DNA from: an uncultured Chthoniobacterales bacterium
GTDB taxonomy: Bacteria > Verrucomicrobiota > Verrucomicrobiia > Chthoniobacterales > SZAS-18
Assembly (NCBI GenBank): GCA_964242205.1
Contig: CAXTBX010000003.1
Coordinates: 32,698 to 96,697 of the forward strand
DNA length: 64,000 nt
Direction of reading: 5' to 3'
Position 1 is the stretch's first letter; the number at the start of each line of letters is the position of its first letter. The position numbers and the translations under genes were made by a program. Below are positions 134-16,539 of the stretch, in pieces. The notes below the pieces were generated by a model. That model had not been told where the DNA came from and made no database searches. It saw only the letters and a list, made by a program, of their open reading frames with translations.

Positions 134-1120
134 TCATATGGTGCCCGTGGTGATCCCGCTTTCGACAATCAGTTTTGAAAACTGCTCTCCATCGACCATC
201 TCGATCCGCACGCCCTTTTCCTCAAGGTACTGCTCGGCCATCTGGTATGCCTCCTCCGCGATGGTACCCGAGGTAATCAGCATCCCGAGATTGGCCGCTT
301 CCGCCTCGATGCCGTTGATGAGTTGTTCGACCTCGGCTCTGCCGACCGGCGGGTACGGCTGCCAGTGCTTTGCTTGGACCGCGACCTTGTAACGGAAGAC
401 ACCCGCCACCCGGAAGAACGCCACCAGATCGGCCCCCATGTCATTGATGCGTGGCACGATCCGCACGTCGGTCGCGCCGAGTTTTTCCAGCACGTTGCCG
501 ATCAGTTGCTCGAAGCCGTAGTTCTCGATGCGGCCACCACGTATCTCGGCCAAGGTCTCGCGGACGAGGCGGCCTTGCAGGTCGTTCTGGAAGGTCGGTG
601 TTACCCCCTGTTCCGCCAAGTTGAGGCACTCCTCGATCTCGGCCACCAGATCGCTTGCGTCCGCGCAGGTGCCGCGAATCTTCATGCGTGAGATCAGGGC
701 CAGACGGGCGTGTGAACGGGGGATGGACCTGCCTTCGTTAAGCCACCTCACAGGTCGCCGGTAGGCTGAATCCGCCTCCACCTTGGAGGCGTCGCGGATC
801 GCTGCTCCCGTAATCTCCGCGACGTAAAACTCCGACCAGTGCGGCACCACCACCAGATCGCCGGGCACCATCTCGCGGATGAAACGCCAGAGATGTCCGG
901 CGGCATTTCCGGCACTGTGCAGCGTGGGTTCCTCTGGATAATACGTGCTACGGACGATCTCCCGGAAGGCGGGCCAGTCGAGTGCCGGGTCGAGCAATCC
1001 CTCCGCCCAAGCCCACCCGATGATGATCTCCCCGGTTTGCAGGGCCTCCGGTACCAAGTCATCCCCGCTCGGGGAGATTTTCAGAACAAAGGCGTTTTTC
1101 GGGGTGGTTTCCGGGTTCAT
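134..1120 (-). CDS. Mrr-family (type IV-like) restriction endonuclease with N-terminal PUA/EVE-like domain
   Basis: C-terminal FEQLI..LEKLG..DMGADL..VAVQAKHW Mrr-cat motif; N-terminal IIIGW..FIREMVPGDLVVVP typical of this family. Confidence 0.8.
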   Translation of the reverse strand: MNPETTPKNAFVLKISPSGDDLVPEALQTGEIIIGWAWAEGLLDPALDWPAFREIVRSTYYPEEPTLHSAGNAAGHLWRFIREMVPGDLVVVPHWSEFYVAEITGAAIRDASKVEADSAYRRPVRWLNEGRSIPRSHARLALISRMKIRGTCADASDLVAEIEECLNLAEQGVTPTFQNDLQGRLVRETLAEIRGGRIENYGFEQLIGNVLEKLGATDVRIVPRINDMGADLVAFFRVAGVFRYKVAVQAKHWQPYPPVGRAEVEQLINGIEAEAANLGMLITSGTIAEEAYQMAEQYLEEKGVRIEMVDGEQFSKLIVESGITTGTI

Positions 1121-1142
1121 GGATGCGGACCTATTTGGGGGA

Positions 1143-2321
1143 TCACGCGGCCATGATGGTCCGTGTGTGTCCGATAAATTCCTCGAAGTTCAGCAGCGTG
1201 ATTTTGCTGCCTTTCTCGTACTTCTTATGCAATTTCTCGGGTACGATCAGCGTGATCCCGGCCTCGTGCATCTCGTCCATCTGTCTGATGGAGATGCCGT
1301 GCTGCGTGGTGAGAAGGTGCTTCTTCCGAACGCGCGGTGCCTCCTGCAAAACCTGTCTCCAACGATCCTTGCAGGTGGTTTTCACCCCGACTACACAGAG
1401 CTTCTCAAGCGGGTATGCGGGATCGTTGTATTCCGCAGCACCCGGAATGATGATGTCGCTTTGCCCCCTGATCTTTCCCGGACGCATCTCGTGACGGATG
1501 TTCTCGCGGGTCAGAAGATGATCCACATGATTTTCCAAGGAACGACCTGCCCGCACCTTCCGCCGGTTGATAATCCTGTGGGCGGTTTTCACGAAGTCGT
1601 CAACGTCTTGAAACAATCTGGAGATGTCCTTGCTGCATAGTTGACGCTCGGCCAGTTTGAAAATCTCGAACTCGGTGTCCAGACACTTCTTCAATGCGTC
1701 GTCGGGAGGGAGGAGTTTGAATCCGGTGACACATTTTTCCAGAATCGCTCTGGCCGTTTCCGAGAACACGTCCGTTCCGGGAAATTTGTCATCCAGCAGC
1801 TTCAGAAAGTCGCGGCTGTGTTTGCGGATACAGCCTGTTGTCGAGCCGCCGGTGGTGACATTGCCGTCCTGATAGGCTCCCCACGACTGGGTGATGTCCA
1901 AGCCGAGGGCGGTCTGGACCTCCTCGATATCATCATCCTGGTCCAGCACATAGGCGGTGAACTCCCCGAACGTGTGCGGAATGATGACCAGCAGATCGCC
2001 GATACAGTCGGCTTGCAGGTAGGGGAAACCCTTGCCGAAGCCGGTCAGCCGGTACTCGCTCCGGGTTTTCTTGCCGTACCAAGTGACGTTGGATGGCGTC
2101 GTCAGCCCTATTTGCCACCAATGCACCTTGACGGCCTGCTTTTTCACAACGCCCTTGATCGGTGGAATGTCGGTGTAGAGCGCATGGATCGACTTCGGCA
2201 AATAGAAGCCCGCCTCGTTGCTACCGGTGGCCCCGACATTGTTCGGCTGGATGTACTTCAGGATGGCCCGCCCGGTGTCGGTGGCGTCCTCGATTGCCCG
2301 TTCGCAGACAGGAGAGGCCAT
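1143..2321 (-). CDS. EcoRII-like type IIE restriction endonuclease (EcoRII-N + EcoRII-C)
   Basis: N-terminal LKYIQPNNVGATGSNEAGFYLP..SEYRLTGFG; C-terminal RAGRSLENH..KTTCKDRWRQVLQEA; directly downstream of a Dcm-like MTase. Confidence 0.88.
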   Translation of the reverse strand: MASPVCERAIEDATDTGRAILKYIQPNNVGATGSNEAGFYLPKSIHALYTDIPPIKGVVKKQAVKVHWWQIGLTTPSNVTWYGKKTRSEYRLTGFGKGFPYLQADCIGDLLVIIPHTFGEFTAYVLDQDDDIEEVQTALGLDITQSWGAYQDGNVTTGGSTTGCIRKHSRDFLKLLDDKFPGTDVFSETARAILEKCVTGFKLLPPDDALKKCLDTEFEIFKLAERQLCSKDISRLFQDVDDFVKTAHRIINRRKVRAGRSLENHVDHLLTRENIRHEMRPGKIRGQSDIIIPGAAEYNDPAYPLEKLCVVGVKTTCKDRWRQVLQEAPRVRKKHLLTTQHGISIRQMDEMHEAGITLIVPEKLHKKYEKGSKITLLNFEEFIGHTRTIMAA

Positions 2322-2337
2322 AGTCTTGGATACCCTC

Positions 2338-3630
2338 TCAGTTTGCCACGGGCACGGCGCGTTTCACAAAGCAGCCGTTCCCCTTGCCTGCCTGATGCCC
2401 GGCAAGAACCTCCGTGATCCGCATCGCAATCGGCGTGACCCCCTTCGGTACGACCGCGTTTCCGAATTGCTTGTAAGCCTGCGTGTCGGAAACCGCGATG
2501 CTGTCCGCGTACTCATCAAATCCCATAAGCCGCGCCGCTTCCTTCGGCATGAGCCTGCGAGGGTTTTTGCCTTCCTGCGGTATCAGGATTTCCGAACCAT
2601 CCTTGTAATAACGCGCGCTCAGGGTGCGCGTGATCCCGGAGCGGGAGGCGAGGCCGAAGCCGAAGCCATTACCCTGTTCACGATGTTTCTCGGCGTAGCG
2701 TTGCAGGTAGGCCCAGAGGTGATCGGTCAGGGTATATTTGTCGGGTACATCCTCCTCCTTCTCCAAAATATCGGACAGGACCGGTTGTGGCTCCAAAGGT
2801 GGACCGGGGAACGTGAATTCGGGGCGCACCGGGAACACCTCCTTGTCGAAGCAGACGATGTAAACTCGTTCCCGGTGCTGCGGCACCCATGCCGCCGCGT
2901 CGATCACGTCGAAGAAGATGTGGTAGCGCAAGGAGTCCAACGTCTCGCGGATCACCTGCCATGTCTGGCCCTTATCATGGGATAGAAGATTGCGGACGTT
3001 TTCCAGGAAAAGCACCGGGGGTCTTTTCGCCTCGATGATCGTGGCGAGGTGGAAAAAGAGGGTTCCTTGGGTGACGCAATCGAATCCGTGTGCCCTGCCA
3101 AGGCTATTCTTCTTTGACACACCGGCAAGCGAGAATGGCTGGCACGGGAAGCCTGCCGCAAGCACGTCATGGTCGGGGATGTCTGACATCTTCACCTCGC
3201 GGATGTCACCGTGCGGCGTCTCGCCGTGCAATTTCTTATAGGTTCTCTGGCAACTGTCGTCCCACTCGCTGCTGAAAACGCACCGTCCACCAACCTTGCT
3301 CAAAGCAACCCGGAAGCCACCGATGCCCGCGAAGATGTCGATGAAATTGAAAAAGGCCGCTCCGTTTCCGGTGACACCGGCAATATCGTGTCGGGGTATT
3401 CCTGCATCTAGTGGCAGCGGTGTTTGCCCCCCGGCAGTGTCATAGGCACGCTTGAGTACATCCAGCACGAACTCCTGCTGGCTCGCGTGGTTCTGACCGC
3501 GCTCCCGGTCAATCCAGTGCCGCACATCCGGCGGCACGTTCCTGACGCAGATGTCATTCGATTTACGGGGCCGCCCCACCTTGCCTGTCCGTGGAGCGGA
3601 TTGTTCAACCCCAGGAAAATTTGATAGCAT
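2338..3630 (-). CDS. dcm: C5-cytosine DNA methyltransferase, Dcm/M.EcoRII-like (probably CCWGG), with N-terminal RHH-like extension
   Basis: FIDIFAGIGG, GFPCQPFSLAGVSKKNSLGRAHGF, ENV, QHRERVY, QFGNAVV motifs; close to E. coli Dcm as recalled. Confidence 0.93.
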   Translation of the reverse strand: MLSNFPGVEQSAPRTGKVGRPRKSNDICVRNVPPDVRHWIDRERGQNHASQQEFVLDVLKRAYDTAGGQTPLPLDAGIPRHDIAGVTGNGAAFFNFIDIFAGIGGFRVALSKVGGRCVFSSEWDDSCQRTYKKLHGETPHGDIREVKMSDIPDHDVLAAGFPCQPFSLAGVSKKNSLGRAHGFDCVTQGTLFFHLATIIEAKRPPVLFLENVRNLLSHDKGQTWQVIRETLDSLRYHIFFDVIDAAAWVPQHRERVYIVCFDKEVFPVRPEFTFPGPPLEPQPVLSDILEKEEDVPDKYTLTDHLWAYLQRYAEKHREQGNGFGFGLASRSGITRTLSARYYKDGSEILIPQEGKNPRRLMPKEAARLMGFDEYADSIAVSDTQAYKQFGNAVVPKGVTPIAMRITEVLAGHQAGKGNGCFVKRAVPVAN

Positions 3631-3864
3631 TTCTGCTCAGATATACTCTACCCCTTGTGGCAGTCACGCGAAATCTTCGGTTTTTACATCAAGATGCCGG
3701 GAATATCCTGCTCCGCCGGGTTGTCGGTCTGCTATCAGACCATGAGCACCGGCGGCACACGATAATCTTGCCGCGCTCGCGGTCAATCTGTTAGGTTCCA
3801 CGTCCGACCCGGATGCGGTGTGGACAGGCCCGCCCGTCGCACCGGGGGTACACACCGAGCATCC

Positions 3865-5502
3865 ATGAGCAATCCGATCCCACCAATCGCCGAAAAACTG
3901 CTGGTTCCACCCGATCCCGAACGCCTTGCCGAGGGGTTGCGCGATACCGGCTACCAGTTGAACACCGCCATCGCGGACATTGTGGACAACTCCATCGCGG
4001 CCAAGGCGAAGCTCGTGCAGATCGAATTGAGGATGGATTTCAGGGGCAACATCAGCCTCAACATCTTCGATGACGGCTCCGGGATGAACCGGGACGAACT
4101 GATCCTCGCCATGCGCTACGGCGCACCCAAGCGGCCATCGGCGGCCAGTCTCGGCAAGTTCGGTCTTGGTCTGAAGACCGCATCCACCGCTTTCTGCCGC
4201 AAGCTCTCGGTCGTCTCGCGCGCCTTGAAGGACGACCCACTGGTACGGGCCACTTGGGACCTCGACCACATCGCACGGGCCGGTCAATGGGAACTGTTTC
4301 TCGACGTTCCCACGGCAGCGCAGGAGAAGACGTTCGAGACCTTCATCACCGGAGGAAAAGGAACGATGGTCGTGTGGGAGGAGGTGGACCGCGTGCTCGG
4401 AGGGTACGCCGATCCGGGCGGCATCCCCGCCAAGAAGGCACTGGACAAGCTGGTGGAGTCGTTGCGCGAACACCTCGGGATGATCTTCCAGCGGTTTCTG
4501 GACAAGGCCGACAAGCGCGCTCCCAATGTTTCCATGAAGCTCAACGGTACGGACATCCCAGCATGGGACCCCTTCTGCGAGGGGGTGTCCACGGATGCTG
4601 GCAAGAGCACCCGCGACGTGGAACTTGCCGATGGCAGTATGGCGAGCTTCGACATCCGCGCGTTCATCCTCCCTCGCAAGGAGGAGTTCAATTCGGAGGA
4701 CGCAGCCCGAAACGCCCGGTTGAGCAACCAGAATCAGGGCATCTACATCTACCGCGAGAACCGGCTGATTCACGGACCGGACTGGCTGAAGATGTTTGCC
4801 AAGGAACCCCACCTGACGCTGCTGAGAACGGAGTTTTCGTTCGATCACCGGCTGGATGATGCGTTCCAGATCGACATCAAGAAGTCACAGGTCATTCTCG
4901 CCGAGGAACTCTACAACGACGTTCTCACCTTCCTGAATCCCGCCCGGCGGGCCGCCGAGCAGATGTACCGCAAGGGGCAGCGGAAGAAGAACGCGGAGGC
5001 AAATGCCGACGCTCACGGTGTCTCCAATCAGAACATCAGCAGCAAGGAGGACAAACTGCCAAAGCCGGACGTGCGCGGGAGTGATCCCGTTGCCGGTACG
5101 GTCGATCTGGTCAACGACAGCGGCAAGGTCCGGGTCAAGATCAAGCTCACGAAGACCACCCAGCCTCGCAAGGTGCTTATCCAGACGGAGGACAGCCTGC
5201 AAGACGGCGTGCTCTGGGAGCCGCGCCTCATCACCGATCCGACGAGCGGTAACTCGCATTACGGCGTCGTCATCAACACCGGTCATGCCTACTACCAGAA
5301 GGTTTATCTACCCAACTTGGCGCAGGGCGTGACCATCCAAGGGATGGACGCCCTGCTCTGGGGCCTGAGCATGGCCGAATTGAAGTGTCTCAGTGACGAG
5401 AACAAGGAAAGCCTTTCCGAGATGCGCCACGAGGTATCACGCAGCCTCCGCAAGCTGGTGGAGGACCTGCCCGAGCCGCCGGACAACAATGCTGACGCAT
5501 GA
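3865..5502 (+). CDS. MORC/MutL-like GHKL (HATPase_c_3) ATPase
   Basis: AIADIVDNS, DDGSGM, LGKFGLGLKTAS GHKL motifs, followed by a MORC S5-like region (QGIYIYRENRLI); alternative GTG start at 3820. Confidence 0.88.
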   Translation: MSNPIPPIAEKLLVPPDPERLAEGLRDTGYQLNTAIADIVDNSIAAKAKLVQIELRMDFRGNISLNIFDDGSGMNRDELILAMRYGAPKRPSAASLGKFGLGLKTASTAFCRKLSVVSRALKDDPLVRATWDLDHIARAGQWELFLDVPTAAQEKTFETFITGGKGTMVVWEEVDRVLGGYADPGGIPAKKALDKLVESLREHLGMIFQRFLDKADKRAPNVSMKLNGTDIPAWDPFCEGVSTDAGKSTRDVELADGSMASFDIRAFILPRKEEFNSEDAARNARLSNQNQGIYIYRENRLIHGPDWLKMFAKEPHLTLLRTEFSFDHRLDDAFQIDIKKSQVILAEELYNDVLTFLNPARRAAEQMYRKGQRKKNAEANADAHGVSNQNISSKEDKLPKPDVRGSDPVAGTVDLVNDSGKVRVKIKLTKTTQPRKVLIQTEDSLQDGVLWEPRLITDPTSGNSHYGVVINTGHAYYQKVYLPNLAQGVTIQGMDALLWGLSMAELKCLSDENKESLSEMRHEVSRSLRKLVEDLPEPPDNNADA

Positions 5503-6389
5503 ACGGGTCCATCGCTCCATTTCTGGTCGGTGCCGTGGAGGATCGTCTGCGGCTGGCCGTGAAGGCTCATCTGGACGACGGCGAGGATGGTGAATACTGC
5601 GATGTCACCCCGCTGGACATCGAAAAGGACAACGGTTTCACCGTGCGCTTCCGCGTTACCCGGCAGAACGCGGAGGCGACCTTCGTGCCGTACACCTACG
5701 CGGCGGACCTCATTGAGGCAATGGGCGGGGCTGCCCAGCAGGGACGGCTTGCCTTCACCGCGCTTGCCCGAGGACTGCACGATAGAGGATTGAAGTTGCC
5801 CATGAGCGTCAACGGGAAGGAGGTGGACCCGGCGGACGCCAGCACTTGGCCGGAGGGATGGCACCGGTTGGAAATGTCTCTCGCACGACGGATGCCGATG
5901 TTCGCGGAGGAGGGCGAGGAACCGCAGATCGAAACGCTGGCGGCGGAACTGGTGGTCCCCGTCCTCGCGCTCACGGTCGCCCTGATCGGGGTGGAGGATG
6001 CCGCCGATGAGCCGGAATCCCCGGTCACGACAGGGCAACCGGAGGGCAGACCATACCAGACTCTCGTGACGCGCTACGAGCGGAAGGGGGTGAACCGGGA
6101 AGCCTGTATCCAGTTGAAAGGCTGCCGGTGTCATGCCTGCGGCTTCGACTTTGAACGCTTCTACGGCCCGCTCGGGGCCGGGTACATCGAGGTGCATCAC
6201 ATCGTCATGGCATCCCGGATGGGCGCGGGCTACATGGTCGATCCGGCAAGGGACCTCGTGCCTCTCTGTGCGAACTGTCACGCGATGGTTCACCGGCAGG
6301 ACCCGCCCATGCCGGTGGAGGAACTCGCGCGACTTCTCGCGGCGCGGCGCGTACCGGAACCTGTCAATGGAAGCGAAGGTAAAGATTGA
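5499..6389 (+). CDS. McrA-like HNH endonuclease with unrecognised N-terminal domain
   Basis: TRYER..CHACGFDF..YIEVHH..DLVPLCANCHAMVH; ATGA overlap with the MORC stop codon. Confidence 0.85.
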   Translation: MNGSIAPFLVGAVEDRLRLAVKAHLDDGEDGEYCDVTPLDIEKDNGFTVRFRVTRQNAEATFVPYTYAADLIEAMGGAAQQGRLAFTALARGLHDRGLKLPMSVNGKEVDPADASTWPEGWHRLEMSLARRMPMFAEEGEEPQIETLAAELVVPVLALTVALIGVEDAADEPESPVTTGQPEGRPYQTLVTRYERKGVNREACIQLKGCRCHACGFDFERFYGPLGAGYIEVHHIVMASRMGAGYMVDPARDLVPLCANCHAMVHRQDPPMPVEELARLLAARRVPEPVNGSEGKD

Positions 6390-8277
6390 GGGGCGGGCCT
6401 TGCGCCTGACCGATGGCGACAGAACGCTGTACCCGCTCGCGGAGGAAATCTTCGCGGTGGTCTTCGAGGCTGCCGACAATATCAGGGGTGTACCGGTGTC
6501 GGCGCGGGATTTCGAGAGTACGGGAGTGGTTTTCTCGCCCAACCCGGCTGTTCCCCTATTGTTGCTGACCACGCATCCGTCAGGCCCGCGTGGTCCCGAG
6601 ATTCTGTGTGATCTGTTCGTCAGCACCGGCGCGGGGGAACATCCGGTCGGACGTGACGGTGACACGCTGCTGGATCACGCGGTCTGCGACGGTCATTGGA
6701 TGCCACTGCCGAGAGGCACTCTGGATGGGCTTGGCCGCATGTTGAAGAAGGCGGGCATCGCCCGGCCCGGAACGATCACCCTCGGTCAGTACATGAACCT
6801 GGTGCGCCAGACCGGCGCGGAGAGCATCGGCATCGAGGATCGCACCGCCGCCACCTTGGGCGCGGCTGACCTCGCCCCGCGCCTCGACGGCGAACCCCCC
6901 GCCGGTCTCCACGCCAAGCTGTTCCCGTACCAGCGCGAGGGATACCGCTGGCTTTCCTACATGGTCCGGGAGGGACTCGGGGCGGTGCTCGCAGACGAGA
7001 TGGGTCTAGGAAAGACCCTCCAGGTGATCTGCCTTCTGGCGGAATTGGCGGAACGTAACGGAACGGCCTGCATCGTGGTCGCCCCCGCGACGCTGCTGGA
7101 GAACTGGCGGCGGGAGATCGCCCGTTTCGCCCCCGGTCTCCGCGTCCTGATCCACCAAGGAGCGGGCCGGGCGGGTCTGTCAACCATGCTGGCCGGGTAC
7201 AATGTGGTGGTGACCTCCTTCGAGACCGCCGTGGGCGACATCGCCATGTTGAGGAACATCACATGGGACCTCGTGGTGGTGGACGAGGCCCAGAACGTCA
7301 AGAACCCGGAAGCTCGTCGTTCGGTCCAACTCAGGACCCTGCCGCGCCGTAGCACGGTCGCCGTGACGGGCACACCGGTGGAGAACCGCCTGCGCGATCT
7401 CTGGTCGGTGCTGGATTTTTCCCTGCCCGGCTGCCTCGGCTCCCTGCCCGAGTTCGAGCGCGAGTATCCCTCGACCCTTGAGGCCGCCCGGAAACTCGAA
7501 CCCCGCGTCTCGCCCCTGTTGCTGCGACGGTTGGTGCGGGACGTAGCGGACGATCTGCCCGGACGCATCGACATCCCGCAGCAACTCGAACTCGATGAGG
7601 AATCCGCGCGTGCCTACGAGGAAATCCGGGCCGAGGCGGTCGCGCGGTACGGGAAAGCGGCCTCCTTCGTGGCCCTGACGACCCTCCGCCAGTTCTGCAC
7701 GCATCCTTGGTTGGTCGGTCGGATGCGGCACATCACCGACCCGCTCCGCTGTTCGGTGAAGCTGAGTCGTCTCTTCGAGATCATGGAGGAAATTATCGCC
7801 ACCGGCGGAAAGGCCATCATTTTCACTTCCTTTCTGGAGATGACCGACATCCTGCTGCGGGAGATCGGTACGAGGCTGCGTATTCCGGTGGACCACATCG
7901 ACGGGAGGGTGGGAGTGGAGGACCGGCAGCGTCGGGTGGACTCCTTCGGCGCGGTGAAAGGGTCCGCCGTCCTCGTTCTCGGACCGAAGGCAGCCGGGGT
8001 CGGCCTCAACATCACGGCGGCGAATCATGTGATCCACTACAACCCGGAGTGGAACCCGGCGACGGAGGATCAGGCCACGGCACGCGCATACCGGCGCGGC
8101 CAGTATGAGGTTGTCACCGTGCATCGTCTCCTCTATGTTGCCACCATCGAGGAGGTCATGGACGAGAGGATGACCGGCAAGCGTGCGTTGGCCGGAACCG
8201 TGGTGGTGCCCACGGATAGTGAACGCGATATGGAGGACATCCTGCGCGCCTTGCAGGTATCTCCCCTCGACCGATAA
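6367..8277 (+). CDS. SNF2-family SF2 ATPase/helicase
   Basis: LFPYQREG, VLADEMGLGKT, VVDEAQNVKN, TGTPVEN, HYNPEWNPATEDQATARAYRRGQ motifs. Confidence 0.93.
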   Translation: MEAKVKIEGRALRLTDGDRTLYPLAEEIFAVVFEAADNIRGVPVSARDFESTGVVFSPNPAVPLLLLTTHPSGPRGPEILCDLFVSTGAGEHPVGRDGDTLLDHAVCDGHWMPLPRGTLDGLGRMLKKAGIARPGTITLGQYMNLVRQTGAESIGIEDRTAATLGAADLAPRLDGEPPAGLHAKLFPYQREGYRWLSYMVREGLGAVLADEMGLGKTLQVICLLAELAERNGTACIVVAPATLLENWRREIARFAPGLRVLIHQGAGRAGLSTMLAGYNVVVTSFETAVGDIAMLRNITWDLVVVDEAQNVKNPEARRSVQLRTLPRRSTVAVTGTPVENRLRDLWSVLDFSLPGCLGSLPEFEREYPSTLEAARKLEPRVSPLLLRRLVRDVADDLPGRIDIPQQLELDEESARAYEEIRAEAVARYGKAASFVALTTLRQFCTHPWLVGRMRHITDPLRCSVKLSRLFEIMEEIIATGGKAIIFTSFLEMTDILLREIGTRLRIPVDHIDGRVGVEDRQRRVDSFGAVKGSAVLVLGPKAAGVGLNITAANHVIHYNPEWNPATEDQATARAYRRGQYEVVTVHRLLYVATIEEVMDERMTGKRALAGTVVVPTDSERDMEDILRALQVSPLDR

Positions 8278-8285
8278 CACGGATC

Positions 8286-8798
8286 ATGTCCACGAAAATC
8301 ATTGCGAAGACACTCAGCGCGAACGACACCGGGGAAACCGGCGCACACATGGGAGGTGTTCTCATCCCGCGAGAGGACACCATGTTGTCGTTCTTTCCAA
8401 GGCTGGATGGCACCATCAAAAATCCGCGCGAGATTGTGGATGTTATTGACGATGTGGGCCGTGACTGGACCTTCCAGTTCATCTACTACAACGGCAAGTT
8501 CTTCGGGGGCACACGCAACGAGTACCGCCTGACCGGCATGACCGCGTTCCTGCGCGAGTTCAACCTGAAAGCCGGGGACACTTTGGTGTTCAGGAAGGAG
8601 GGACGGGAAACCTTTGTGAGCTACCGCCGCGCCGGGGAGATGGCTGGAGAACAGACGACCGCTGGCTCCTCGGTGATACGCGAGGACGCGCCCGGTTCCA
8701 ACGATCCCGACTGGCTCCCCGGCATGGACAAACTTCCCAAAGCCCGGCGCGTGCTCAGGCTGGGAGGCAACTGGAAGGTGATCCAATACGACGAGTGA
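8286..8798 (+). CDS. standalone EcoRII N-terminal (B3-like) DNA-binding domain protein
   Basis: KTLSANDTGETGAHMGGVLIP..GTRNEYRLTGM..LKAGDTLVF; no nuclease domain. Confidence 0.82.
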   Translation: MSTKIIAKTLSANDTGETGAHMGGVLIPREDTMLSFFPRLDGTIKNPREIVDVIDDVGRDWTFQFIYYNGKFFGGTRNEYRLTGMTAFLREFNLKAGDTLVFRKEGRETFVSYRRAGEMAGEQTTAGSSVIREDAPGSNDPDWLPGMDKLPKARRVLRLGGNWKVIQYDE

Positions 8799-8810
8799 CC
8801 ATGAAGGTTG

Positions 8811-9326
8811 TCAATCCGTGTGGGGAACCTCCCGCCGTTCTGATGGCCTGTCATCCGTCTCGTGTTCCAAGCTGATAAGAAGATCGACCTCTCCCCGCAA
8901 CCATCCGATCACAAGTCCAGTGGTGGCCGAGTTGAGCAGGGCGAAAACGAACAGCAATAACTGCGCGACAAAAAACCTCCCGCCGATTGGCTCCGAGGCG
9001 TGTCCCTTCTCCTCGTTGTGGATCGAGAAAACCAGGAAGATGGCGGACAGGACAATACCGAGGATTGCGATGGAGATTACCCGCATGATCTTGACCTCGA
9101 AACCACGCTTCCGGCGGTAATAAAAAATCTGTTTCCGCATCGCTTCCGCATGAAGAATGATGGCGGTGAACATCATCTCTGGGGACAGGATAATATTTAC
9201 CAAGGGCTGCCCGGTCATGAAATGGTCAGCCGCATAGACGTACAATGGCAGGAGCACGAACGCGGAACTCTCGACAAGCCACTGAAAACCGAGGACGAAA
9301 AGCACTTCTACTGGCCGGCAGATCAT
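8811..9326 (-). CDS. hypothetical membrane protein, about 4 TM helices
   Basis: four hydrophobic stretches; start uncertain (longest ORF begins at 9482, overlapping the repressor). Confidence 0.65.
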   Translation of the reverse strand: MICRPVEVLFVLGFQWLVESSAFVLLPLYVYAADHFMTGQPLVNIILSPEMMFTAIILHAEAMRKQIFYYRRKRGFEVKIMRVISIAILGIVLSAIFLVFSIHNEEKGHASEPIGGRFFVAQLLLFVFALLNSATTGLVIGWLRGEVDLLISLEHETDDRPSERREVPHTD

Positions 9327-9432
9327 ACCGAGCAGGGCGAGACAGCCTCGGGCAGGTGACGGCGACCGGTTGGCATCGGCACCGGTTCCCGGAGAACCTT
9401 CCGTGGATGTTTTCTCCTCGGACACGGGACGG

Positions 9433-10128
9433 TCAAAATTTCCGGTCCGCCCACACGACGCGCCCGACAATCCTTGCCTCATCGCCGATGGATCGCGCCG
9501 CGATCTGCCGGGGCCGGTAGTTCGGGTTGTCGCTCAGAACCTCGACCGTATTGCGGTCGGGGCGGTGCAGCCGCTTGACATGGAGCGCGCCTTCGAGGCC
9601 GAGCGCGAAGATACCATCGCGTATCGCCGTATCGGAGCGGTCCACTAGGAGAATGTCCCCCGGTCGCAGGGTCGGTTCCATGCTGTCGCCTTCGACGTGA
9701 ATCAGGCAGAGTTGCGCCGGATCGACGCGAAGTTTGTTCCGCAACCAGTCGCGCCGGAAGGCGACGAGGCCGTCCATGCACTCGGGACCGACCTCGCTGC
9801 CGGGTCCCGCGCTGGCGCAGACGTTGTAGTCTGGAATCCATACCACATCGGTCCCGACCTCGTCGGTTCCCGGCTGCATTGATCCCACGCCGGTCAGCAG
9901 CCACTCCGCGCGCACCCCCGCTGCCTCTGCCAGTTTGAAGATGGTGGAACGGGGCGGCTCGCCCTTCTCGAAGTATTTGCGGATGGTACTCTGGGCGATG
10001 CCGCTGGCCTTCGCCAGCGCGTTGACGCTGCCAACGAGTTCCGCCAATCTGCGAAGCCGTTGCTTGAAACTCTCGGTCAGGGCATCGGGAGTGTTCTGCT
10101 GGGTGGACATGGAATAAAGCCGGAACAC
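9433..10128 (-). CDS. CI/LexA-like repressor (XRE HTH + S24 peptidase)
   Basis: HTH region VNALAKASGIAQSTIRKY; ASAG Ala-Gly site; EGDSMEP (Ser) and HVKRL (Lys). Confidence 0.9.
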   Translation of the reverse strand: MFRLYSMSTQQNTPDALTESFKQRLRRLAELVGSVNALAKASGIAQSTIRKYFEKGEPPRSTIFKLAEAAGVRAEWLLTGVGSMQPGTDEVGTDVVWIPDYNVCASAGPGSEVGPECMDGLVAFRRDWLRNKLRVDPAQLCLIHVEGDSMEPTLRPGDILLVDRSDTAIRDGIFALGLEGALHVKRLHRPDRNTVEVLSDNPNYRPRQIAARSIGDEARIVGRVVWADRKF

Positions 10129-10186
10129 GGGTCAGCTTGAATACTAGCACGGGCCGGTGCAAAGTCGAACATTTTGAGCGAATTTC

Positions 10187-10222: not shown

Positions 10223-10263
10223 TTATGCGCTATGATGAGGCTATTCCCGACATCCGTGGAACG

Positions 10264-12981
10264 ATGATGTCGGTGGAGGTATTCGGGGATTGGTGCCGCC
10301 GGTTGCAATTGTCGGATGGTTGCCGGGCGATGATCGAGCGCGTCCGCTCCTCGCCCCCCGTTCGACGTGTGGGCGGTGGGGGTGGCAATGTCTGCGGGTT
10401 CTATCCGTCCACGAAGATGGGTCATACCATCCAGTTCGAGTCGCACCGCAACGAACTGGCCGCCATTCACGAGTACGAGCACGACCCTGACGTGCTCGAA
10501 TACTGGGATCAACCCGAATCCATCAGGCTCAACTATGAGGATCGTAATGGTCGCCGCATCGGGATCAATCACACCCCGGACTTTCTCGTGTTACGACGGG
10601 ATGGGGCAACCTGGGAGGAATGCAAACCCGAGGACAGGCTGCACGGCCTCGCCCGGCAGTCACCCAACCGCTACATCCGGCACGAGGACGGTACCTGGAC
10701 CTGTCCGCCGGGTGAGGAACACGCGGCCCGGCTGGGACTCTCCTACCGGCTGCGTTCCTCCGGGACCATTGACTGGACCCTCCAGCGCAACCTGACCTTC
10801 CTCGAAGACTACCTGCGCGCGGAAACCCCGCGCGTGGACCCGGAGACCACCGGACGGTTGCTGGCGATGGTCCGGGATCACCCCGGTCTCACGCTGGCCG
10901 ATCTGGTCCTGCGGGCGGAGGGAGTCAGCCGTGACGCGATCCACACACTCATCGCCACGGGCACCGTCCACGCCGATCTGCGGGCCGCCGCGCTCGCCGA
11001 GCCGGAGCGGGTGCGACTATTTCGTGACCATGTCACCGCGACCGCCCACGGGATCGTGGCGGAGCGCGCCGGACCGGCGACGGATACGATGCCGGACCTG
11101 CTCGCCCTGCCCGGCACGAATGTCCTGTGGGACGAGCGGGCACTTGCCATTGTCCACGTTGGTCCGTCCAAAATCGTGTTGCAGGACCCGGACGGTGCGC
11201 TGGTCAAGCTGACGAAAAAGAGCTTCGAAGACCTGCTGAAAGCGGGGGAGATCACCGCCCGCGCGCCGGAGGTGGCCGGGACCGACCCCGGTCTGCGGGA
11301 ACTGCTCGCCGGGGCCAGCGAGGAGGAGTTCGCGGAGGCGAACCGCCGCTACCTCATCATCGAACCCCTCCTGTCGGCCACGGGCCTGCCGGATGATCTG
11401 CCGCTGTCGCGCGGGGCACCCACCGTCCGCACGATCAGGCGGTGGATCACGGCATGGCGGCAGGCGGAGGCGACCTGTGGATGCGGTTACGCGGGGCTGC
11501 TGCCCGGCTGGGGACGGAGGGGCAATCGCTCGCGGAAGCTACCGCAGGGGACGCTCGACGCGATGGACAAAGCCATCCGGGAGGAGCACGAAACAATCAA
11601 GGGCAAGGTGGCGGAGCGGGTTTACGGCGCACTGGTCAGCCGGTGCGAGCAACTGGGTCTCGTCCCGCCGAGCGGTGCGACCTTCCACCGGGCAATCCGG
11701 TCCAGACCGAAGCACGAACAGGCCCTCAAGCGGCAGGGCCACCGCGCGGCCTACCGGTACGAGATTCCCTACCTCGAACTCTCGCTGACCACGCCCCGCC
11801 ACGGGGAACGTCCCTTCGAGGTCTGCCACATCGACCACACCCAACTCGACCTCGAACTGCTGTGCTCGCGCACGGGCGTCAACTTGGGGCGTCCTTGGAT
11901 GACGCTGCTCGTGGATGCGTTCTCCCGCCGCATTCTCGCTGTCTTCGTGACCTTCGATGAGCCGAGCTACCGCTCCTGTATGATGGTCCTGCGCCTGTGC
12001 GTGCAGCGGCACGGCAGGTTGCCGCAAATCATCGTGGTGGACAACGGCCCGGAGTTCAGGAGTACTTGGTTCGATACTACCTTGGCACGGCATCGCATCA
12101 CCAAAAAGCTGCGCCCGCCCGCCAAGGCCCGCTTCGGCTCCGTGTGCGAGCGGTTGTTCGGCACCACCAACACGCAGTTCGTCCACAATCTCGCGGGTAA
12201 CACCAAGGTGATGCGGAACGTCCGGCAGGTGACAAAATCCGTCGATCCGAAGGGACTCGCGTGCTGGACCCTCGGCCTGTTCTACGAGTCTCTCTGCGCC
12301 TACACCTACGAGCAGTACGACACCTCTGACCATCCGGCTCTCGGTGACAATCCACGCGCGGCGTTCACCAGGGGACTGGAACTCGGCGGGGAGCGTGCCC
12401 ACCTCTTCGTGCCTTACGACGAGACGTTCAGGATGCTCATGCTGCCGACCACCCCGAGAGGCAAGGCCAAGGTGCAGCCGGGCAACGGGGTGAAGATCAA
12501 CTACAACTACTATTGGGCGGACGAGTTCAGGAACCCGGACATCGAGAACACGCGGGTCCCCGTGCGCTACGATCCGTTTGACAGCGGCACCGCATGGGCG
12601 CGCGTGGGCAAACGCTGGCTCAAATGCACCTCCGGGTACTACCAGACGTTCCGGGGCCGCTCGGAAAAGGAGATCATGCTGGCGACCACCGGGTTGCGGA
12701 AGCTGCGGCAACGACACTCGGGCCGTGCCATCATCTCGGCCCGCTCCCTCGCGGACTTCCTCGGCAGCGTCGAGGCGCGGGAACTCCTGCTGCCGCAACG
12801 GGCCAAGGACGCGGCTCTCGGCGAGGTGATGGCGGTCATCGAGGGACATCCGGCTCCCGTGGCCGCCGCCGTTTCCGATGCCCGACCGGCGACCCCGCCC
12901 GTCATGGACGCATCCGACAGTGGCTCGATCTGGGCGGCGGCCACGTCTCCCGACAACCTGCGCGACTTCGAGGCTTTCTGA
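10264..12981 (+). CDS. tnsAB: fused TnsA endonuclease-TnsB DDE transposase (TnsAB)
   Basis: TnsA motifs QFESHRNEL and HTPDFLV..WEECKP; DDE motifs HIDHT, VVDNGPEF, CERLFG; Mu-like C-terminal region; alternative start at 10225. Confidence 0.92.
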   Translation: MMSVEVFGDWCRRLQLSDGCRAMIERVRSSPPVRRVGGGGGNVCGFYPSTKMGHTIQFESHRNELAAIHEYEHDPDVLEYWDQPESIRLNYEDRNGRRIGINHTPDFLVLRRDGATWEECKPEDRLHGLARQSPNRYIRHEDGTWTCPPGEEHAARLGLSYRLRSSGTIDWTLQRNLTFLEDYLRAETPRVDPETTGRLLAMVRDHPGLTLADLVLRAEGVSRDAIHTLIATGTVHADLRAAALAEPERVRLFRDHVTATAHGIVAERAGPATDTMPDLLALPGTNVLWDERALAIVHVGPSKIVLQDPDGALVKLTKKSFEDLLKAGEITARAPEVAGTDPGLRELLAGASEEEFAEANRRYLIIEPLLSATGLPDDLPLSRGAPTVRTIRRWITAWRQAEATCGCGYAGLLPGWGRRGNRSRKLPQGTLDAMDKAIREEHETIKGKVAERVYGALVSRCEQLGLVPPSGATFHRAIRSRPKHEQALKRQGHRAAYRYEIPYLELSLTTPRHGERPFEVCHIDHTQLDLELLCSRTGVNLGRPWMTLLVDAFSRRILAVFVTFDEPSYRSCMMVLRLCVQRHGRLPQIIVVDNGPEFRSTWFDTTLARHRITKKLRPPAKARFGSVCERLFGTTNTQFVHNLAGNTKVMRNVRQVTKSVDPKGLACWTLGLFYESLCAYTYEQYDTSDHPALGDNPRAAFTRGLELGGERAHLFVPYDETFRMLMLPTTPRGKAKVQPGNGVKINYNYYWADEFRNPDIENTRVPVRYDPFDSGTAWARVGKRWLKCTSGYYQTFRGRSEKEIMLATTGLRKLRQRHSGRAIISARSLADFLGSVEARELLLPQRAKDAALGEVMAVIEGHPAPVAAAVSDARPATPPVMDASDSGSIWAAATSPDNLRDFEAF

Positions 12982-12987
12982 TCCACC

Positions 12988-14166
12988 ATGAGCACGATGG
13001 AACATCTCACGGCGGGTTTTCCGCGCGAACTGCTCTCCCGTCCCAAAAGGGCGCGCAGGGAATACTTCCGTGATTATCGTGTCCCGCACACGCGGCTGCG
13101 GACGGTTTGCGAGGAACTCATGTCGGCCATCCTCGACACGGCAGATCGTTCTCTGATTTTCTTGGCAGGTCCGACCGGTGTGGGCAAAACGACCCTCATC
13201 CGTTTCCTCGAAGCCCGTCTCACCTCATATTTGCTGAATGAATTGGAAGAGGATCGGGGACGATTTCCTTTCGTCACCCTTGAGGTGCCCGCGCCGGAGA
13301 CATCGGTGTTCCCGTGGCGTGATCTCTACCAACGTGCTCTGATAGCGATGAACGAGCCACTCATCGGGCACAAGACCGCCGTGCCCGCGCGTCCGACGCC
13401 GGATGGTGGGGTGGAGGCTGTCACCCGGACCGGGCGCGGGGCGGCAACGCAGGACCTTCGCCAAGCTCTGGAATCGGTGCTGCGCCATCGTCGTCCCCTC
13501 GTCTGCATTCTTGATGAGGGACAACATCTGATGAAGATCGCCAGCGGGCGCAAACTGCGGGACCAGTTGGATGTCATCAAATCCGTCGCCAACCTGAGTG
13601 GGGTGCCGCATCTGCTGACCGGCACCTACGATCTGGTTCCCTTCCTTGATCTCAGCGGCCAACTCTCCCGTTGTAGCACCATTATCCATCTGCCGCGTTA
13701 CCAGAACATGGTGCTGGAGGACGCCACTCTGTTCTCCGGGGTCGTGCGCGCCTTCCAGAGGCATCTGCCACTCGCGGAGGAGCCGGACCTGATCGGGCGT
13801 GTCGAGTATCTGTACCAGCATTCCATCGGCTGTGTGGGTGTGCTCAAAAACTGGCTGGGCCGCGCGCTCAACCTCGCGCTGGACGAGAACGCCCCGACGC
13901 TGACGACGGCGCACCTGAAGAAACGCGCGCTCACCGCCGCCCAATGCCGCCGGATGCTCTCCGACGCGCGGGAAGGTGAGAAAAAGATGACCGACGATGA
14001 CGCGGAGATCGCCCGCTTGCAGGAGGAACTCGGCATGTTTTCTGCGGCAACGGTGCCCGTGTCCTCCAAGGCGGGGAACGACGCCGGTTCCACCCGCAAA
14101 CAGAAGCCGTTCCAGCGCAAACCCGTCCGCGACCCGGTCGGACATGACGACGACCATGCATTCTGA
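12988..14166 (+). CDS. tnsC: TnsC/TniB AAA+ ATPase
   Basis: Walker A GPTGVGKT, Walker B CILDEGQH; lies between tnsAB and tniQ. Confidence 0.92.
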   Translation: MSTMEHLTAGFPRELLSRPKRARREYFRDYRVPHTRLRTVCEELMSAILDTADRSLIFLAGPTGVGKTTLIRFLEARLTSYLLNELEEDRGRFPFVTLEVPAPETSVFPWRDLYQRALIAMNEPLIGHKTAVPARPTPDGGVEAVTRTGRGAATQDLRQALESVLRHRRPLVCILDEGQHLMKIASGRKLRDQLDVIKSVANLSGVPHLLTGTYDLVPFLDLSGQLSRCSTIIHLPRYQNMVLEDATLFSGVVRAFQRHLPLAEEPDLIGRVEYLYQHSIGCVGVLKNWLGRALNLALDENAPTLTTAHLKKRALTAAQCRRMLSDAREGEKKMTDDDAEIARLQEELGMFSAATVPVSSKAGNDAGSTRKQKPFQRKPVRDPVGHDDDHAF

Positions 14167-15550
14167 ATTATCCATGCTGCTGCCACCGCCGCTGCCCGCG
14201 CGCAGCCGCCTCATTGCTCTGCCTCCCTGCGGCGTCGGTACGGCGCGCACGGAGAGCCTGACAGGCTACGTCGCCCGACTCGCCGCCGCGCATGGTGTGA
14301 GTACGGGCACTCTCCTGCAACACGAGCTGGTCGGGCATATCAAAAACATTGCCGGGGAAAGGAGTGGGGCGCGGGTCAGTCTCACACCGGCCTATTTGCG
14401 TTCGATGAACGGTATGGACCCGGTGGCCGACACCTGGACGCGGCTGCTCGGGGAACTGACCTGTCGCGGTGATCTGCGCCATCTGACCATGCTTGCCTGG
14501 ATGAACGTGATGCCGTCACGCGGTCTGTTCCGGGAGGAACGCGCCTGGTGCCCGGAGTGCTATGCGTGCGATGAGGTGGTTCACGAACACCTGATCTGGT
14601 GCCTCGCGCCCGTCACGATCTGCACGCACCATCGGCGGCCTCTGGAAAACCGGTGCCCGCACTGCCACGAGAGCCTGCCCGTCATTTCGTGGCGTTCCGT
14701 GCCTGGCTTCTGCTCGTCCTGCCGTGGCTGGTTGGGAACCACATCGGGGAGCGCGGACGCGGGTATGGCGGCCTCCGTGGAACTCCCTGCATGGGAATGC
14801 CGGGTGGCGGAAAACTTCGGTGAACTGGTCTCCGCCGCGCCGGGCCTCACGCATCCTCCCGGCAAGGACCGGATCGCACACGCGCTGGAAGCTCTGACCG
14901 GTTGCACAGGTGCGGGGCGGATGGCTGGCGTTCTGGGCGTGGACTACATGGCGTCTTGGGCATGGAGCACGGGCAAGATGAGGCCGCTGATCGCCTGCCT
15001 GCTGCCCATCTGCGCGAGGTTCGGGGTGTCATTGATGGCCTTTTACACGGATGCCGCCCTGCAACCCGGCGCACCTGACGGGGTGATCCCACAGGCAACG
15101 GACAGGGCCGGGACCCCGCGTGCCAAACCTGTCCGGCGGGGATCACGTCACCGGCAGCGCGCATTGCTCAAGCGGGCGGGTGCATACCTGCAAAGCATCG
15201 TGACGGAGGAGCCGGTGCCGCCGCCATCGCTGTGTGAAATCTGCCGGAGGACAGGACACGATAAACCGGTTCTCTACCGGCATTACCCGGACCTCTGCCG
15301 GGCCATCACCGCGCGTTGGAAAGAATGGAACCGTGGCCGGGGTTCGGATCGCCGCGAGCGGCTTGCCCGTGAGATACGTGAGGTCGCCCTCCGGTTGCAC
15401 GCCGAGGGGATTGTTCCCACCACTCTGACGGTGGCGCGATCTCTCGCCCTGCCCGGAGCGATCCGGGACCCGGTAGCCCGGTCCACGTTGCGTGAGATCA
15501 GAAAGCAACTCGCATCGGAAGCAGCCGGTTTGCAGACCGGGAACGGATGA
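14144..15550 (+). CDS. tnsD: TniQ/TnsD target selector with C-terminal extension
   Basis: ESLTGYVARLAAAH, zinc fingers WCPEC..C..HH..CPHC..FCSSC, C-terminal HTH-like region; overlaps tnsC stop. Confidence 0.88.
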   Translation: MTTTMHSELSMLLPPPLPARSRLIALPPCGVGTARTESLTGYVARLAAAHGVSTGTLLQHELVGHIKNIAGERSGARVSLTPAYLRSMNGMDPVADTWTRLLGELTCRGDLRHLTMLAWMNVMPSRGLFREERAWCPECYACDEVVHEHLIWCLAPVTICTHHRRPLENRCPHCHESLPVISWRSVPGFCSSCRGWLGTTSGSADAGMAASVELPAWECRVAENFGELVSAAPGLTHPPGKDRIAHALEALTGCTGAGRMAGVLGVDYMASWAWSTGKMRPLIACLLPICARFGVSLMAFYTDAALQPGAPDGVIPQATDRAGTPRAKPVRRGSRHRQRALLKRAGAYLQSIVTEEPVPPPSLCEICRRTGHDKPVLYRHYPDLCRAITARWKEWNRGRGSDRRERLAREIREVALRLHAEGIVPTTLTVARSLALPGAIRDPVARSTLREIRKQLASEAAGLQTGNG

Positions 15551-16382: not shown

Positions 16383-16448
16383 GAAAGCATAAAGTGTCCG
16401 TACACTTTAGAAAGCATAACCTGTCCGTGGCGGACAGGTTATGCTTTC
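16383..16448. repeat. three copies of an 18-19 bp motif, candidate TnsB sites at the transposon end
   Basis: GAAAGCATAAAGTGTCCGT (16383-16401), GAAAGCATAACCTGTCCGT (16410-16428), inverted CGGACAGGTTATGCTTTC (16431-16448). Confidence 0.75.
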
Positions 16449-16467: not shown

Positions 16468-16539
16468 GTTCCCGTAGTTCAACGGATAGAATAGAGGTTT
16501 CCTAAACCTTTGATCCGAGTTCGATTCTCGGCGGGAACA
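16468..16539 (+). tRNA. tRNA-Arg(CCT)
   Basis: acceptor stem GTTCCCG/CGGGAAC, anticodon arm GAGGT-TTCCTAA-ACCTT, T-loop GTTCGATTC; CCA not encoded. Confidence 0.93.

Follow-up and report, generated by a model that had tools for sequence, protein, structure and literature searches.

An intact copy, carried by a Tn7-like transposon, of a widespread MORC–HNH–SNF2–B3 gene cassette, probably linked to Dcm restriction-modification, in an uncultured Chthoniobacterales bacterium

In this work, we analysed a stretch of 64,000 nucleotides (the window) from contig CAXTBX010000003.1 of an uncultured Chthoniobacterales bacterium, in which four adjacent genes encode a MORC-type GHKL ATPase, an HNH nuclease, a SWI2/SNF2 ATPase and a stand-alone EcoRII-N/B3 DNA reader (Table 1). 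Together they make up an intact copy of a cassette that is widespread in bacteria. Judged from sequence comparison, the cassette is probably, and we hold this with moderate confidence, the restriction half of an ATP-dependent, Dcm-linked restriction-modification (R-M) system of a MORC/SWI2-SNF2 class. The operon type is already known, having been predicted in 2008; what is added here to a first-pass annotation of the same DNA is the membership of the Dcm methylase, the division of the cassette into two fixed gene pairs and the retention, but for one substitution in this lineage, of the residues that contact CCWGG. That annotation had described four co-directional, tightly coupled genes, and this layout was confirmed by the coordinates of the open reading frames (ORFs), with Pfam backing each domain call.

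The spread of the cassette was surveyed by a pattern scan for the HNH family in 185,579 species genomes, one genome per species, which confirmed 499 loci; 80 of them were kept. The six-frame ORFs of the 80 loci were searched with the window proteins, and unlabelled neighbours were clustered. MORC, HNH and SNF2 genes were contiguous on one strand in 64 of the 80 loci, and B3 was also present in 57 of these 64; the remaining 16 were mostly cut contigs or distant HNH-only matches. The cassettes came from Verrucomicrobiota, Proteobacteria, Actinobacteria, Bacteroidota, Firmicutes and other phyla, and the HNH protein alone had more than 300 full-length homologue clusters. The recurrence of MORC, HNH and SNF2 together is far beyond chance, and all four genes were found together in 57 of the 80 loci, mostly alongside Dcm. 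This neighbourhood survey, which the first-pass annotation had proposed, bears out its suggestion that the genes form a conserved functional unit. The order SNF2-B3-MORC-HNH was found in 51 loci and the order MORC-HNH-SNF2-B3 in six loci and the window; MORC-HNH and SNF2-B3 are therefore two fixed pairs, and it is the order of these pairs as whole units that differs between loci. Among the four core proteins, pairwise identities correlated closely with one another (Spearman 0.78–0.88, a descriptive figure only, as the locus pairs are not independent). Correlations of the core proteins with Dcm were 0.40–0.50 and those with EcoRII were the lowest, at 0.22–0.35, again from non-independent locus pairs. 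Two irregular copies were also seen. In Bradyrhizobium tropiciagri (L010:9341-10786) the cassette is decayed, an intact HNH gene standing beside short SNF2 and MORC fragments, and in an Omnitrophota metagenome-assembled genome (L005:958-2382) the HNH frame runs on without a stop into the start of SNF2, which is either a possible fusion or an assembly error.

The partner that most consistently accompanies the cassette is the Dcm-type methylase. Dcm adjoined the cassette in 57 of the 64 loci, often abutting it on the same strand with overlapping ORFs (e.g., L004 and L007), and neighbour clustering placed Vsr beside Dcm in 43 loci, whereas a full-length EcoRII was present in only 20 of the 64. 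Because Dcm, usually with Vsr, is near-constant and EcoRII is optional, the methylase belongs to the system. Dcm and EcoRII had been taken in the first-pass annotation as a separate R-M pair from which the cassette diverges; the divergent placement stands, but these unequal frequencies argue against the separateness. The window Dcm scored 273 bits with the NCBIfam dcm superfamily model, above its cut-off, and is the only PF00145 match in the source genome, and it is the probable cognate protective methylase of the cassette. The window EcoRII matched EcoRII in the PDB (1na6, 7e-48) and keeps the KDR region and the E225/F229 pocket residues. We also set a prediction that could have failed, namely that genomes carrying the cassette should hold a Dcm. 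All five genomes whose cassette has no adjacent Dcm had a C5 methylase elsewhere, as did 9 of 14 control genomes. In the two clean Dcm-less cassettes (L056 and L022), the genome held an unlinked Dcm-Vsr pair whose Dcm was 64–68% identical to cassette-linked Dcms, and this close similarity of type is more telling than the bare count.

The reader protein of the window matched Pfam EcoRII-N (3e-15) and B3 (2e-6) and, in the PDB, the EcoRII-N–DNA complex 3hqf (3e-8) and the B3 domains of plant VAL1/ARF proteins (about 5e-8). EcoRII-N contacts bases through N28, H36, Q37, Y85, R94, E96 and R98, of which Gln37 reads the central adenine, and its binding is abolished by 5-methylcytosine (5mC) at the inner cytosine of either strand (Golovenko et al., 2009; PMC2770665). 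These seven positions were kept in 56–58 of 58 stand-alone B3 proteins. The window copy keeps N28, H36, Y85, R94, E96 and R98 and has Met at the position of Q37, where 57 of the 58 family members have Gln; it alone in the set departs, and Met is likewise found in its relative of 87% identity at locus L083. This Met is residue 22 of the window protein; the window protein and that of L083 read HMGG where 57 of the 58 members read HQ(A)G, and both carry a 32-residue lineage-specific insertion near the C-terminus (residues ~123–154). Because the Met and the insertion are common to a relative from another metagenome, they are real lineage features rather than sequencing errors, and they may give an altered or relaxed specificity for the central base. 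A recent duplication of EcoRII-N was considered as the origin of the free B3 protein and rejected, since the window B3 protein and the N-domain of the neighbouring EcoRII are only 29% identical over 83 residues. A B3-less SNF2-MORC-HNH variant was found in L057, L058, L060, L065 and L066 (Bacteroidota and a spirochaete) and in L077 (Planktophila). Four of these loci have in common an unannotated ORF of ~270 amino acids, which in L066 sits between the methylase and SNF2 genes (L066:5569-6405, no Pfam match), and in L077 a Dam-type D12 methylase takes the place of Dcm. A different reader may substitute for B3 in this variant.

The ATPase matched Pfam HATPase_c_3 (1e-25). Its motifs D38, N42, D69xG71xG73, G100xG102 and G166-T167 and the S5 lysine K340 were invariant in 70 homologues. 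Residue 38 of GHKL motif I is Asp, not the canonical catalytic Glu, in 69 of the 70 family members, which suggests that ATP hydrolysis may be unusually slow or regulated. Foldseek searches with the AlphaFold2 model (mean confidence score, pLDDT, 86) gave MORC3, MORC2, MORC4 and SMCHD1 as the best matches (6e-17 to 2e-14), ahead of MutL (about 1e-11); since these proteins outrank MutL structurally, the label MORC-type is justified.

The HNH protein is built of an N-terminal alpha/beta domain (residues ~1–165), a disordered linker and a C-terminal McrA-like HNH domain with a Cys4 zinc site. It matched Pfam HNH (4e-4), and residues 177–267 aligned with McrA in the PDB (6ghc, E 7.5e-5). Residues C211, C214, H233, H234, C257, N259, C260, H261 and H265 were invariant in 38 HNH sequences. 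The N-terminal domain was confidently modelled by AlphaFold2 (pLDDT 86 for the protein), and Foldseek found no fold match for it in the PDB, the McrA reader domain included (best E ~0.1). A search of 1.84 billion proteins showed that this domain is almost confined to HNH proteins of ~280 amino acids. It is possible that it serves as an adaptor to MORC.

The SNF2 protein matched Pfam SNF2-rel_dom (9e-54) and Helicase_C (3e-18). Its top PDB match was the Sulfolobus SNF2/Rad54 core 1z63 (2e-81), and the next was 8qy7, a DEAD/DEAH box helicase (2.3e-60) that we take to be ZorD. The GKT and DEAQ motifs and the motif VI residues were kept in 62 homologues, the N-terminal region of ~175 residues was poorly conserved, and no NCBIfam equivalog cut-off was reached. 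By these motifs the protein has an intact SWI2/SNF2 core. Given that the GHKL motifs, the S5 lysine, the SNF2 motifs and the HNH and zinc residues are all invariant, the enzymes of the cassette look active.

The first-pass annotation had presented the architecture as a candidate new one. This does not hold, as the same class of operon was described by Iyer, Abhiman and Aravind (2008; Biol Direct 3:8, PMC2292703). In the passages of that paper that were searched, a second class of prokaryotic MORC operons comprises MORC, a SWI2/SNF2 helicase, an HNH or EcoRII-like nuclease and, in some cases, a VP1/RAV (B3) protein, frequently with cytosine methylases and Vsr, the latter not being obligatory. 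The same passages predict an R-M function with DNA looping on computational grounds, with no system name and no experiment. The window has the gene set of this class as those passages give it: a MORC-type ATPase with GHKL and S5 domains, an adjacent SNF2, an HNH nuclease, a B3 protein and a cytosine methylase. It differs in having dcm divergent rather than co-directional, in being carried as Tn7-like cargo and in having no linked Vsr; Vsr is absent from the element, and the one Vsr in the genome lies on another contig, C74. The two-block structure and the conservation of the CCWGG contacts were not met in the searched passages of the 2008 paper, the rest of which may hold them. A 2026 preprint on Tiamat still cites the 2008 prediction and calls the function of prokaryotic MORCs 'proposed'.

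The first-pass annotation had also recognised no named system in the cassette, and indeed no PADLOC v2.0.0 or NCBIfam model matches it; the PADLOC run that it had called for returned only sub-threshold or core-domain matches. The nearest named relative of the window ATPase is MzaB (PADLOC 1e-44), and the first-pass annotation had noted that the Z1, DUF4420 and AIPR components of Mza are missing. Mza (MzaABCDE) is said to have been reported by Gao and colleagues in 2020 as an anti-phage system. It was rejected, as the ATPase scored 195 bits with the NCBIfam MzaB model against a cut-off of 850, none of Z1, DUF4420 and AIPR was found among the ORFs at 134–10162, and the window has HNH, SNF2 and B3 in their stead. 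An AIPR abortive-infection protein is encoded directly upstream of SNF2 in some Brevundimonas and Sphingomonas cassettes (L022:3753-5927 and L033:3735-5921), which recalls the AIPR partner of Mza. Zorya was rejected because the NCBIfam ZorD model, with a cut-off of 1500, gave 235 bits, the matched part is confined to the SNF2 core and no ZorA/B is nearby. DISARM was rejected because two NCBIfam DrmD models gave 82 bits (cut-off 950) and 43 bits (cut-off 610) and DrmA/B/C gave no matches; the DrmMII match of Dcm is generic C5-methyltransferase similarity. The DpdE match of SNF2 was sub-threshold or confined to the core domain, and Dpd was rejected too. Hma consists of HmaA (SNF2 with a DUF3883/NOV_C nuclease), HmaB (a DUF1156 methyltransferase) and HmaC (a DUF499 ATPase) (PMC11232893); the HmaA match was weak (1e-18) and limited to the helicase C-lobe, and the other components were absent. 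Identity as a Type IV McrA-like enzyme was rejected as well, since the match to McrA stops at the HNH domain, no fold in the PDB was matched by the N-terminal domain and the gene is always paired with MORC.

Several characterized enzymes nevertheless resemble parts of the cassette. The partner methylase of NgoAVII and CglI is of the C5 class. In these systems a nuclease works together with a B3 reader and a separate ATPase, and ATP hydrolysis is required for cutting (Zaremba et al., 2014; Tamulaitiene et al., 2014; PMC4267654). The likeness to the window lies in site reading by a B3-like domain, in a separate helicase-like ATPase that acts before the nuclease cuts and in the methylase partner. 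However, in NgoAVII/CglI the B3 domain is fused to a phospholipase D (PLD)-type nuclease, the motor is DEAD/Z1 and there is no GHKL ATPase, whereas the window combines a free-standing B3 with an HNH nuclease and an SNF2 motor and adds MORC. An identity with NgoAVII/CglI was therefore rejected, and the likeness is one of mechanism only. The window B3 protein is homologous to the effector domain of EcoRII, with the same base contacts, and the HNH catalytic domain is like that of Escherichia coli McrA, joined to an unrelated N-terminal domain. In contrast to EcoRII and McrA, reader and nuclease are separate proteins in the window, and they are coupled to two ATPases.

Taking these data together, we propose a mechanism, every step of which we infer from homology, gene pairing and co-occurrence. 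Dcm would methylate CCWGG-type sites of the host and so mark self DNA, and the free B3 protein, like EcoRII-N, would bind such sites only if they are unmethylated. B3 would then recruit or activate its fixed gene partner SNF2, which would translocate along the DNA. The MORC ATPase may dimerise on ATP and clamp or loop the DNA, and it may activate its own fixed partner HNH through the family-specific N-terminal domain, whereupon HNH would cut. The full-length EcoRII would be an optional second nuclease under the protection of the same methylase. The division of labour suggested in the first-pass annotation, in which B3 reads, the motors act and HNH cuts, fits these data, and NgoAVII and CglI are an experimentally studied precedent for the mechanism.

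Some of our observations weigh against a Dcm-linked restriction role. The Met at the position of Q37 may mean that the window B3 protein reads a differing site or binds more weakly, and the Asp in GHKL motif I could reflect slow hydrolysis or a clamp-only role of the ATPase. The identity correlations were drawn from locus pairs that are not independent, and the finding of a C5 methylase in all five Dcm-less genomes is weak in itself because 9 of the 14 controls have one too. It is unexplained why both EcoRII and the cassette are kept against the same site. Linkage to Dcm would also be expected of a repair accessory. Finally, no experimental study of this operon was found in the literature searched, which covered few subscription journals.

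Of the other explanations, the one that survives best, although we consider it unlikely, is a methylation-independent defence module, in which SNF2, MORC and HNH would sense some feature of invading DNA or of infection, as has been proposed for ZorD and for SNF2 nucleases of the HmaA type, and Dcm-Vsr would be nearby through the clustering of defence genes. Such a module would accord with the best PADLOC matches of the SNF2 core (ZorD and DpdE), with the few cassettes that have no adjacent methylase (L022 and L056), with the other defence genes around the cassette (the Mrr-like PDC-S02 protein in the window, AIPR in L022 and L033) and with the only moderate co-variation of Dcm with the core. 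However, the adjacency of Dcm in 57 of 64 loci, often with overlapping ORFs, is far tighter than island clustering, the B3 family retains the CCWGG contacts of a methylation-sensitive domain, and where no Dcm adjoins the cassette, the genome still carries a Dcm-Vsr of the same type at another place.

It is slightly less probable again that the cassette is a repair or mutation-avoidance accessory to Dcm, in which MORC, an HNH nickase and SNF2 would act at Dcm sites on T:G mismatches or damage, after the manner of Vsr-MutL-UvrD very-short-patch repair, foreign DNA not being attacked. MORC is a relative of MutL, as shown by NCBIfam MutL matches and by the Foldseek result given above, Vsr is co-located in 43 loci, and the analogy with MutL and Vsr was drawn in the consulted part of Iyer et al. 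(PMC2292703). Yet Vsr already provides that function in most loci, and the cassette is patchy and mobile, being found on plasmids and in Tn7-like cargo but in none of 60 relatives of the source genome. Moreover, the B3 contacts suit an intact unmethylated CCWGG rather than a mismatch, and the pairing of a double-zinc McrA-like HNH and a translocase is characteristic of restriction enzymes. A Type IV modification-dependent system, in which the HNH protein would cut DNA with a foreign modification (5-hydroxymethylcytosine or another methylation pattern), is very unlikely: E. coli McrA (6ghc) is the closest relative of the HNH domain, homologues are labelled '5-methylcytosine-specific restriction protein A' by the Joint Genome Institute (JGI) and there is a PADLOC mREase_IV match (3e-6), but the similarity to McrA is limited to the catalytic domain, the N-terminal domain being without a fold match, readers of the EcoRII-N type are blocked and not attracted by 5mC (PMC2770665), and a 5mC-dependent nuclease would be self-toxic given the constant linkage to a C5 methylase. 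All three explanations are less consistent than the Dcm-linked restriction system with the tight linkage to Dcm, the mobility of the cassette and the conserved reader contacts.

None of 60 relatives of the source genome, among them 13 species of its genus, was found to carry the HNH family, and plasmid-borne copies occur in cultured Rhizobium, Agrobacterium, Sphingomonas, Marinobacter, Pseudomonas and Vibrio, where the RefSeq gene names are generic. On a 19 kb plasmid of Pseudomonas putida T25-27, NZ_CP043577.1, dcm is divergent from vsr-MORC-HNH-SNF2-B3 (positions 2088-9122), which is the arrangement of the window with Vsr added. The search for phage-borne copies gave only three partial matches of ~30% identity, in unannotated 'Bacteriophage sp.' contigs.

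In the window itself, the first-pass annotation had assigned the cassette to transposon cargo, and this is supported by the genes downstream, which encode a TnsA-TnsB fusion (918 amino acids), TnsC and one TniQ (10225–15550), and by end motifs on both sides. The 17-nucleotide motif AAAGCATAAC(C/T)TGTCCG is present in three copies, at 16384, 16411 and 16431 (span 16384–16447), adjoining a tRNA-Arg(CCT) gene at 16468–16539, and in a single copy in the expected orientation at the opposite end (G000:C3:29364, equal to window position -3333). Because the motif is found at both ends, the cassette lies in the cargo of a Tn7-like element of ~19.8 kb. Between the cassette and the tns genes are a small membrane ORF and then a probable S24 repressor, the latter called from the Peptidase_S24 domain of its L083 homologue. 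L083, a close relative, has the same tns side and a partly different left-hand cargo. Its contig (coverage ~4x) has both Dcm (6837-8134) and MORC (8265-10004) broken into a pair of called ORFs, which are frameshifts or low-coverage errors.

Other genes of the same cargo deserve mention. The Mrr_cat gene beside EcoRII is a third nuclease gene, and its best PADLOC matches were models of the candidate system PDC-S02 (3e-23). There is also a DNA glycosylase of the HhH-GPD/EndoIII family with an iron–sulphur motif (L081:1403-2269, minus strand, equal to G000:C3:30602-31468; Pfam 1e-8; NCBIfam monofunctional DNA glycosylase 2.5e-25, under the cut-off). As the element has Dcm and no Vsr, a mismatch glycosylase could replace Vsr, and by analogy the cargo glycosylase could be such a stand-in; Mig.MthI beside M.MthTI is a precedent for a mismatch glycosylase. 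Two further cargo ORFs of ~397 amino acids (L081:283-1476 and L081:2275-3471, both on the minus strand) had no Pfam, PADLOC or NCBIfam match.

The gene starts and the regulatory signals of the cassette were also considered. The ATPase gene was taken to start at the ATG at 3865, an alternative GTG at 3820 being possible, and the start of SNF2 was matched by an independent gene call in L083. A promoter scan gave one sigma-70-like match in the divergent region, on the minus strand at 3786–3759. The same region was searched for regulatory palindromes and operators, which revealed weak repeats only. The terminator scan gave no terminator-like site on the plus strand within the cassette, and the promoter and terminator scans were otherwise uninformative.

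Table 1. Features of the cassette and its immediate neighbours (positions in the window)
Feature	Position	Strand	Remarks
Mrr_cat protein	134-1120	-	Pfam
Full-length EcoRII-like Type IIE endonuclease, 392 aa	1143-2321	-	Pfam EcoRII-C 2e-52, EcoRII-N 1e-16
Dcm-type C5 cytosine methyltransferase, 430 aa, N-terminal extension ~90 aa	2338-3630	-	Pfam DNA_methylase 4e-77
Intergenic region of 234 bp from which dcm and the cassette diverge	3631-3864	.	Presumed promoters of both transcription units
MORC-type GHKL ATPase, 545 aa	3865-5502	+	GHKL domain, S5-like transducer, C-terminal beta/helical domain
HNH nuclease, 296 aa	5499-6389	+	Overlaps ATPase gene by 4 bp
SWI2/SNF2 ATPase, 636 aa	6367-8277	+	Overlaps HNH gene by 23 bp
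Stand-alone EcoRII-N/B3 pseudobarrel DNA reader, 170 aa, without nuclease domain	8286-8798	+	8 bp gap after SNF2

The cassette also bears a likeness to eukaryotic proteins. MORC2, MORC3, MORC4 and SMCHD1 are the best structural matches of the ATPase module, plant B3 domains match the reader, and both contexts involve cytosine methylation and SNF2 remodellers. Unlike the eukaryotic MORCs, the window MORC has no CW, coiled-coil or hinge domains and has Asp for Glu in motif I, and its partner is a nuclease with presumed DNA cutting, whereas eukaryotic MORCs act in silencing. We suggest only tentatively, and with clearly less confidence than the restriction role itself, that the cassette represents a mechanistically distinct class of restriction enzyme made of two sub-complexes (a B3·SNF2 reader-translocase and a MORC·HNH clamp-nuclease held together by a fold without a match in the PDB) and the direct prokaryotic antecedent of the eukaryotic toolkit of MORC, SNF2, B3 and cytosine methylation.

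In summary, the window adds one intact copy of this cassette, with Tn7-like carriage, an unusual substitution in its DNA reader and no linked Vsr. Prokaryotic MORCs are cited as ancestors of the MORC silencing ATPases of animals and plants, and their function is still described as 'proposed' in the literature searched. Because the cassette is compact, widespread and present on small plasmids of cultured strains, it offers a tractable route to the first biochemistry of a bacterial MORC, as well as a route to a restriction enzyme that uses two different ATPases, and it is a good experimental target. If the proposed relationship to the eukaryotic toolkit is true, bacterial biochemistry could reveal the loading of a MORC clamp on unmethylated DNA.

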